Source: a virus (lineage: Duplodnaviria > Heunggongvirae > Uroviricota > Caudoviricetes). Taken from it: a DNA stretch of 62,914 nucleotides. Under the pieces are notes generated by a model. It had not been told where the DNA came from, made no database searches, and was given only the letters and a program-made list of their open reading frames with translations. Each line of letters begins with the position of its first letter. Position 1 is the first letter of the stretch. Location of the stretch: positions 113,952 through 176,865 of the IMG/VR virus record IMGVR_UViG_3300021403_000003. The stretch is one strand, 5' to 3'. Below are positions 44,040 to 44,906 of this stretch, one piece after another. The translations under genes and the position numbers were made by a program.

Positions 44040-44906
44040 CAATGGAAGTTTTGATGGTTTACTTTTCATTAAAAACGACCTAGAATGTTTCTAACGAGTG
44101 AAGCACTGAAATCAGAAATGAACGGTACTTTACTTTTAAGGTGAACGGGACTATACTGTTTGCCTTGTCGAAGAAGGGTTGTCAGAAGATTCGCACTGGT
44201 TGGCTGATGTTGTTGAGCGACGTAGGTCGTTCCGATATCAAGGTACGACGAAACCGATTTTTGACAAGGAACTCGTAACCGAGGTGGCAATCGGTTGCGC
44301 CAGCCACGCGGATAAACCACTCCTTGGTGCCGCTGAAAACAGAAGCATTGTGTTTGATCCCTCACACCAAAAGGGATCTTCTAATTGAAGAATTCTCGTG
44401 CTCAATTGTCAGTCTGACGCACGGAATTATAATGACTGACCACTGTGATCCGAAGTGTTAAAATCGGTGTACGATCACGGTTTCTCGTAATTGGAAATGA
44501 TGAGCCCGTGACCCGTGGTGGGTGACCCATAATAAACGGCCGGAGATTCCTCATACAAGCGACCTAATCAAAGGATAGAGCTGCATCTCAATACTAACTG
44601 CGGCAGTACTGGAATCATCCAAGGTTCCGATGCTTCCCCAACCATTAGAAACGATCGCTGCCACGTGGATTGGTTGGGCACTATTTAGACCCTGAGACCT
44701 CTAATGATGTAGAAGTGGCATCATGACCCAGTGCACAACGCTGCCCGTGGTTTTGGATGTAGGTTCGACTCCTACCAGGGTTGTTCTATTGACGTAACGT
44801 GACTGCACCCACGATAAACGGCAGCGTTGAGAAACGATAAATCTGGATGGAGTATTAACACCATAATAGTGTAATTATGTCCTGGCTGGGTGGACAGTAA
44901 CCCAGC
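44040..44906 (+). ncRNA. large ornate ncRNA, GOLLD-like
   Basis: No credible ORF; many helices and pseudoknot pairings; T-loop hairpin at 44759-44775; follows a CTAAATA late-promoter motif; heads the tRNA array. Confidence 0.6.

Follow-up and report, generated by a model that had tools for sequence, protein, structure and literature searches.

The tRNA cluster of phage T4 encodes, at its end, two stable RNAs of ~120-140 nt, known as species 1 and 2 (rnaC and rnaD), which are not tRNAs but are transcribed together with the tRNAs and undergo processing alongside them. Phages also carry a large non-coding RNA, GOLLD (RF02032), which is found beside tRNA islands (Weinberg et al. 2009, cited in PMC12286853). 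According to the account of Kretsch et al. (bioRxiv 10.1101/2024.12.08.627333; PMC12286853), the variable regions or linker of GOLLD can hold tRNAs, and the RNA self-assembles into a 14-mer nanocage. ROOL (RF03087), an RNA of phages and prophages of ~0.58 kb, is often located near tRNAs (Weinberg et al. 2017, PMC5737381). Both GOLLD and ROOL are described as forming RNA-only cages and as lying ‘often near tRNA islands’, possibly being co-transcribed with the tRNAs. They are among the few big bacterial and phage RNAs without known function, and each independent family in the tRNA-island context narrows what that context selects for.

The locus analysed here adds to these cases a T4-like soil phage lineage whose RNA has a dedicated predicted promoter cluster. 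A first-pass annotation had proposed a single pseudoknot-rich RNA of ~870 nt at 44040-44906, heading the tRNA array and either GOLLD-like or of a new class. Our best reading is that the element falls in no described family and serves the tRNA operon as a structured leader or stable RNA, new and restricted to one clade. A search of the literature on T4-type tRNA clusters found no paper describing a comparable RNA.

The locus and its relatives

The window, by which we mean the whole stretch of DNA that was analysed, comprises the terminal 62.9 kb of an IMG/VR virus record that is complete at 176.9 kb, from a phage whose family-B DNA polymerase is 44% identical to the polymerases of T4-like cyanomyophages. 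Within it, an ORF-poor stretch separates an HNH endonuclease gene (43537-43950) from an array of 31 tRNA genes, the first of which downstream of the element is tRNA-Asn; a MazG gene lies 0.5 kb upstream of the element. The G+C content is 45-51% in the element and 30-36% immediately upstream, and the longest ORF in the region 44040-44906 encodes 98 aa on the minus strand. After tRNA-Asn, at 45165-45578, there is an apparent HNH endonuclease gene interrupted by an in-frame stop, which splits it into two ORFs (45165-45271 and 45288-45578); the protein collection holds no close relative of it other than the copy of this phage itself.

Relatives were recovered from a large protein collection with MazG as the anchor, and two of the contigs found in this way, both from metagenomic phages, proved informative. 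In L009 (from SRR14712105), whose MazG is 73% identical, the RNA comes straight after MazG; the HNH gene at 43537-43950 is missing there and is probably a mobile insertion. L094 (from SRR28285641; MazG 67% identical) carries the first ~160 nt of the element. The L009 contig is cut at its 3' end, and the covariation analysis rests on the comparison of the window with L009. The same protein search revealed that near-identical strains of the window phage exist, and downstream protein anchors returned the phage itself and nothing else. Searches of phage GenBank by blastn and megablast found no similar DNA, and a search of IMG/VR with MazG and DNA polymerase found no close relative. An 18-nt invariant block gave no hits in IMG/VR, 79 in JGI metagenomes and 68 in GTDB genomes; none extended beyond the probe in nhmmer, and we read these exact matches as chance. 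The outcome of the searches suggests that the element family is confined to a small, rare clade.

A further group, L005 to L008 (MazG 56% identical), shares the gene order of the window and has an ORF-free stretch of ~800 nt before the same first tRNA (Asn). In L005 it lies behind a consensus sigma70 promoter at 10648-76 (TTGACT, 17 nt, TATAAT), and ~450 nt of it (10684-11130) fold with z = -3.4; the feature (10648-11349) is present in L006-L008 as well, and the four copies of the ORF-free stretch are 99.9% identical. Neither blastn, nor nhmmer, nor a covariance model of 44268-44380 detected homology between this stretch and the element, and the most it may represent is an analog by position. 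Given the non-homologous stretch in this group, the function of the element may perhaps not be conserved beyond the small clade. A few genes upstream of the tRNA array in this group (L005:5437-6837) lies the gene for a 466-aa DUF2828/DUF7788 protein with a faint match to the Ro60 vWA domain (E = 0.059); the genome of the window phage, queried with this protein, yielded no Ro60-like gene.

The features of the element and of the sequence in front of it are as follows.

44006-13, + strand: conserved upstream box of 8 nt, found at the corresponding place in both L009 and L094
44027-33, + strand: late-promoter-like motif CTAAATA, in the same place in L009 and L094 as CTATATA
44058-44086, + strand: predicted promoter P1 of sigma70/T4-early type (TTTACT, 17 nt, TAGAAT), from a consensus scan
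44096-44135, + strand: predicted 5' hairpin of P1 transcripts, its 3' strand overlapping the -35 element of P2
44129-44157, + strand: predicted tandem promoter P2 (TTTACT, 17 nt, TATACT), from a consensus scan
44164-44396, + strand: domain A, the conserved structured core, supported by identity, covariation and independent folds
44162-79, + strand: small 5' hairpin of domain A
44180-44267, + strand: long irregular arm of domain A, with an apical hairpin at 44215-32
~44274-99, 44302-36, 44338-56 and 44356-78, + strand: further hairpins of domain A
44397-44507, + strand: window-only insert of 111 nt, absent from L009
44406-33, + strand: predicted internal promoter P3 (TTGTCA, 16 nt, TATAAT), agreeing with the consensus at 11 of 12 positions
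44508-44687, + strand: domain B, with an invariant block at 44513-44540 and a covarying arm at 44629-44685
44629-32/44682-85, 44637-44/44671-78 and 44653/44664, + strand: helices of the domain B arm
44688-44829, + strand: tRNA-like module, in normal tRNA order, with no anticodon arm and no CCA
44688-94/44776-82, 44704-24 and 44759-75, + strand: acceptor stem (7 bp), D-like hairpin and T arm of the module
44885-44906, + strand: terminal hairpin with a 7-bp stem (z = -2.9), the stem identical and the loop different in L009

Could the stretch encode a protein? Over the first 360 nt, the window and L009 differ by six 1-nt indels and one 2-nt indel, their substitutions are spread flatly over the codon phases (21/25/26), and the two longest ORFs have no Pfam match; together with the lack of any ORF above 98 aa, these observations rule out protein coding. 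Identity between the two phages is 79% in the promoter region, 80% in domain A (44164-44396) and 59% in domain B (44508-44700), compared with 52-62% at the third-codon positions of three neighbouring genes. The high identity of domain A relative to these positions indicates strong purifying selection on this domain.

Promoters, lineage-specific pieces and the 3' end

The late-type motif CTAAATA that the first-pass annotation had pointed out at 44027 is in place, and its position is conserved in both relatives, where CTATATA is a one-base variant of it. The same motif lies 24-40 nt upstream of RBS/start codons at 14680, 26048, 56473 and 57367. Its nine copies in the window are not above chance (6.5 expected), and eight of the nine are on the + (coding) strand; the motif presumably acts as a promoter. 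As for P1 and P2, both L009 and L094 share with the window their hexamers and a spacing of 16-17 nt. At P2, L094 has a spacer of entirely different sequence and retains the hexamers and the 17-nt spacing, which is the signature of a promoter and not of an RNA helix. The architecture of P1 and P2 occurs at two sites only in the 63-kb window, where 0.12 are expected, and one of 100 shuffles reaches two. Sigma70-like sites in general, which the scans define as consensus matches, number four in the region and are not above the 3.1 of shuffles.

Transcription is predicted to start near 44040, 44093 (P1) and 44164 (P2), and a hairpin would follow each start site a few nucleotides downstream. The arrangement points to expression from both early-type and late-type promoters. 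The 8-bp base of the hairpin at 44096-44135 can pair both in the window and in L009, between which it shows two one-sided changes; on visual comparison, L094 retains this base and has an apical part of variable length. The first ~125 nt of the interval that had been taken in full for the body of an RNA are read here as promoters. Promoter DNA or recent insertion accounts for about one-third of the 870 nt proposed as RNA, a caution that candidates judged by size and context alone can seem more ‘giant’ than they are.

P3, within the window-only insert, is the only site of the form TTG(A/T)CA, N16-18, TATAAT in the 177-kb genome, and the reversed-pattern control gave none. The pairing of 44408-14 with 44434-40, formerly described as a pseudoknot, is present with seven Watson-Crick pairs and turns out to be a plain inverted repeat, perfect over its 7 bp, which brackets P3; it is possibly an operator. 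Transcripts starting at P3 would be without domain A. The insert (44397-44507) is single-copy in the genome, its own fold is unremarkable (z = -0.69), and its single copy led us to reject the idea of a repeated mobile cassette of promoter and stem-loop.

In the tRNA-like module, the place of the anticodon arm is taken by a strand pairing with sequence 3' of the acceptor end, and the stem 44736-50/44809-29 (10+5 bp) crosses the acceptor pairing; these crossing pairings could represent either a pseudoknot or alternative folds. The perfect stem reported earlier at 44736-45/44820-29 does exist, with 10 Watson-Crick pairs and an extension at 44746-50/44809-13; a perfect 10-bp stem appears by chance in 123 of 500 shuffles of the element sequence. 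The hairpin at 44759-75 and the crossing pair 44776-81/44689-94, also reported earlier, are likewise real, and they are simply the T arm and the acceptor stem of the tRNA-derived module.

Several known RNAs were considered for this module or for the element and rejected. ARAGORN calls over it a 96-nt ‘tRNA-Val’ with an intron, and the tRNA model RF00005 (cut-off 29 bits) has no match at 44688-44783 at E <= 10; an intron-containing tRNA is far below threshold, the ARAGORN call being an acceptor/T-arm remnant. The tmRNA model RF00023 reaches 9.7 bits on the T-arm region against a cut-off of 47, ARAGORN found no tmRNA, and CCA is lacking. YrlA (RF02553) matches weakly at 44737-44831 (17.9 bits, E = 1.9, cut-off 69), and the order of the module is normal, not permuted. 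A trans-supplied RNase P specificity domain was dropped as well, the specificity domain of the bacterial RNase P RNA (RF00010) having no match in the element at E <= 10.

The last bases of L009 find their best local match in the terminal hairpin (44881-44907; 2 of 300 shuffles) and not in the module, and this alignment makes ~44725-44880, the segment with the T arm and long stem of the module, appear missing from L009. The insert and the module segment may have been either gained here or lost in L009. The terminal hairpin at 44885-44906 is present as first described, and its stem is conserved in L009. We observe that in L009 (4965-4990) the hairpin, with its 7-bp stem and 7-nt loop, is followed by A-CCA and resembles a tRNA acceptor minihelix; the window reads A-AGA at this place. 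A tRNA mimic is located at 44916, 9 nt past the hairpin, and would constitute an RNase P site. The terminal hairpin probably serves as a protector of the 3' end of the released RNA.

Another possibility is that the element is a cis-acting leader or attenuator, which senses a signal (a tRNA or a protein, for example) and controls read-through of the terminal hairpin into the array. The order of promoter(s), structured leader, conserved terminator-like hairpin and downstream genes is what such a device would display, and its position is conserved in the relatives. The hairpin was, however, flagged by the scan as weakly terminator-like, with a poor T tract in the window and none in L009, and no alternative anti-terminator pairing was identified. 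Riboswitch and T-box models gave no match in cmscan of the window and of 43500-45600, and P3 would bypass domain A. We consider attenuation quite improbable on these grounds.

Covariation, family tests and the extent of the RNA

The covariation test avoids circularity by taking the single-sequence MFE fold of the window and asking whether the substitutions of L009 respect it; in the null, the substituted bases were permuted among the mutated columns. Across the entire length that the two phages share, L009 maintains 43 mutated pairs, against 32.6 expected (3 of 2000 permutations). Most of the long-range pairing in the MFE is broken in L009, and the whole-length MFE was rejected as a structural model for this reason. 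Of the 23 pairs mutated in domain A, 13 are preserved (null 7.7, p = 0.0006), and all seven doubly substituted pairs are still canonical (null 3.7, p = 0.006). The window and L009 independently fold this domain into one series of hairpins, up to 44378. Between 44268 and 44380 all pairs form in both phages, three of them changing on both sides, and none does so in slid-partner controls. The stem 44163-72/44260-69 of the first-pass annotation is present in the window as 10 bp, one of them G-U, but only 8 of the 10 pairs form in L009, where two are broken with no compensatory change, and the two-phage consensus favours a different pairing.

Domain B, taken in its entirety, shows no significant covariation (p = 0.8). 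Its arm at 44629-85 preserves nine of nine mutated pairs, five of them through double changes, and the helix 44637-44/44671-78 carries three doubles. Across the element, helices of at least 6 bp in both phages with at least one compensatory double number 8 against 1.4 (0 of 60 column shuffles), and those with two or more doubles 3 against an expected 0.18. Among helices spanning more than 150 nt, those with a compensatory change are no commoner than chance would give (2 against 1.0; 16 of 60 shuffles). The well-supported covarying helices are all local in this comparison of two sequences, and the pseudoknots receive no covariation support from the window and L009. The architecture that the substitutions point to would be a chain of local stem-loops; the lack of long-range covariation between two sequences is weak evidence against a global fold.

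Placement of the RNA on the + strand follows from the orientation of all genes and tRNAs, from the many G-U pairs in the supported helices and from the better z-score of that strand, the whole element compared with shuffles giving z = -3.5 on the + and z = -1.95 on the - strand. Judged by covariation and purifying selection, a conserved, folded non-coding RNA region does precede the tRNA array, and this part of the original proposal holds. It could be argued that there is no functional RNA at all, the locus being promoter DNA, decayed tRNA genes and mobile-element scars that are conserved at the DNA level. Such a view would draw on the three sigma70-type promoters, on a tRNA-derived piece with neither anticodon nor CCA, on HNH genes flanking both sides and on the two indels relative to L009. 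It is, however, difficult to reconcile with domain A, which is located beyond the promoters, has an identity of 80% against ~55% at neutral sites, and carries substitutions that are compensatory in + strand RNA helices; we regard this view as very unlikely.

Does the RNA belong to GOLLD or ROOL? The Rfam gathering scores are 150 bits for GOLLD RF02032 (416 positions), whose model encodes the universally conserved 3' region, and 99.1 bits for ROOL RF03087 (574 positions). In Rfam 15, RF02032 is GOLLD and RF01998 is group-II-D1D4-1. At gathering scores, cmscan of the whole window returned tRNAs only, and at E <= 10 neither GOLLD nor ROOL was listed for 43500-45600, the ROOL model being part of both runs. 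Genome-wide, 24 candidates were scored with the GOLLD model and none was at E <= 10; the ROOL model also gave none at E <= 10, and in that search the control genomes gave none either. The L009 homolog and the syntenic L005 region likewise have no match to GOLLD or ROOL. The family call, for which a covariance-model match had been set beforehand as the test, is refuted, since neither the region nor the whole genome gave a match, be it at gathering score or at E <= 10. A divergent member of either family would have context and size only in its favour; as far as the Rfam models go it is refuted, in the window, region, genome, L009 and L005 region alike, and we give it next to no credence.

A more serious contender is a single large ornate RNA that would represent a new class and function analogously to GOLLD or ROOL. 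It would fold as one unit, might self-assemble, and would hold the tRNA-like passenger in a variable linker, as is the case for the tRNAs of some GOLLD RNAs. Long invariant blocks that look unpaired, mosaic conservation and variable insertion points would all be at home in such an RNA, and the whole + strand folds better than shuffles, with the z-score given above. These observations are set against long-range compensatory helices at the level of chance, the broken long-range pairs of the MFE in L009, a domain B that is barely conserved (59%) and a first 125 nt made up of promoters. In addition, the near-consensus internal promoter would yield transcripts without domain A. With three sigma70-type promoters, two lineage-specific insertions and local covariation only, the interval does not bear out the single pseudoknot-rich RNA of ~870 nt originally envisaged, and we hold the unitary ornate RNA to be unlikely, if still worth weighing.

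Proposed reading and comparison with known systems

How might the locus work? We hypothesize that the promoter cluster at 44027-44157, with its late-type motif and two tandem sigma70-type promoters, drives a structured leader made of domain A with at least five stem-loop arms, then the looser domain B and the conserved terminal hairpin. This lineage would have acquired a 111-nt piece with a very strong predicted internal promoter, and also the tRNA-like module. The leader would be co-transcribed with the tRNAs throughout infection, and would begin with a 5' hairpin whichever promoter fires. A cut by RNase P at the tRNA-like element at 44916 would then release it, with the 3' hairpin being protective, and the product would be a stable RNA of ~0.75 kb here and of ~0.5-0.6 kb in the relative.

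On the whole, we think it probable, with some reserve, that the element is best explained as a modular non-coding head of the tRNA operon and not as a single giant RNA. Most likely, in our view, it would act on or with the tRNA precursor pathway, as a modular RNA that is either stable or a leader. The fallback of a ‘new class’, offered together with the family call, may still apply to the ~230-nt domain A, and perhaps to a core of ~500-620 nt. A bolder version, which we rate as speculative and distinctly doubtful, would make domain A, with or without domain B, the first member of a new phage RNA class whose work is linked to the tRNA array: perhaps an RNA-only scaffold or tRNA-binding platform, set free from the operon head and tolerating lineage-specific passengers at fixed insertion points, by analogy with the linker tRNAs of GOLLD. 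In any case, the strongly constrained core of ~230 nt is tractable for probing and structure work, and the two natural insertion variants show where the fold tolerates passengers.

The element resembles GOLLD in that it adjoins an array of 31 tRNAs in a T4-like phage, a context that is not family-specific, and in that it tolerates a tRNA-like passenger. It differs from GOLLD in that its conserved part is the 5' domain A, whereas that of GOLLD is a universally conserved 3' domain; its core, moreover, measures only ~0.5-0.6 kb, its pseudoknots lack covariation support, and the model does not match. With ROOL it shares the phage origin and the proximity to tRNAs, but again no model match. Neither sequence nor any architecture demonstrable from the window and L009 is shared with GOLLD or ROOL.

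The likeness to YrlA (RF02553) consists in the stem 44736-44829, which encloses a T-arm hairpin; the module of the element is, however, unpermuted, running from the acceptor 5' strand through the D-like hairpin and the T arm to the acceptor 3' strand. A close counterpart of the module is found in the tRNA-Leu(UAG) gene of the array (47659-47735), which it matches at 22 of 23 positions over the T arm and 3' acceptor strand and at 6 of 7 in the 5' acceptor strand, and whose D arm begins similarly. Here the differences are a 7-nt insertion before the D-like hairpin, the lack of CCA and the replacement of the anticodon arm. Finally, in comparison with species 1 and 2 of T4, the element is several-fold larger, heads the array and has its own predicted promoter cluster.
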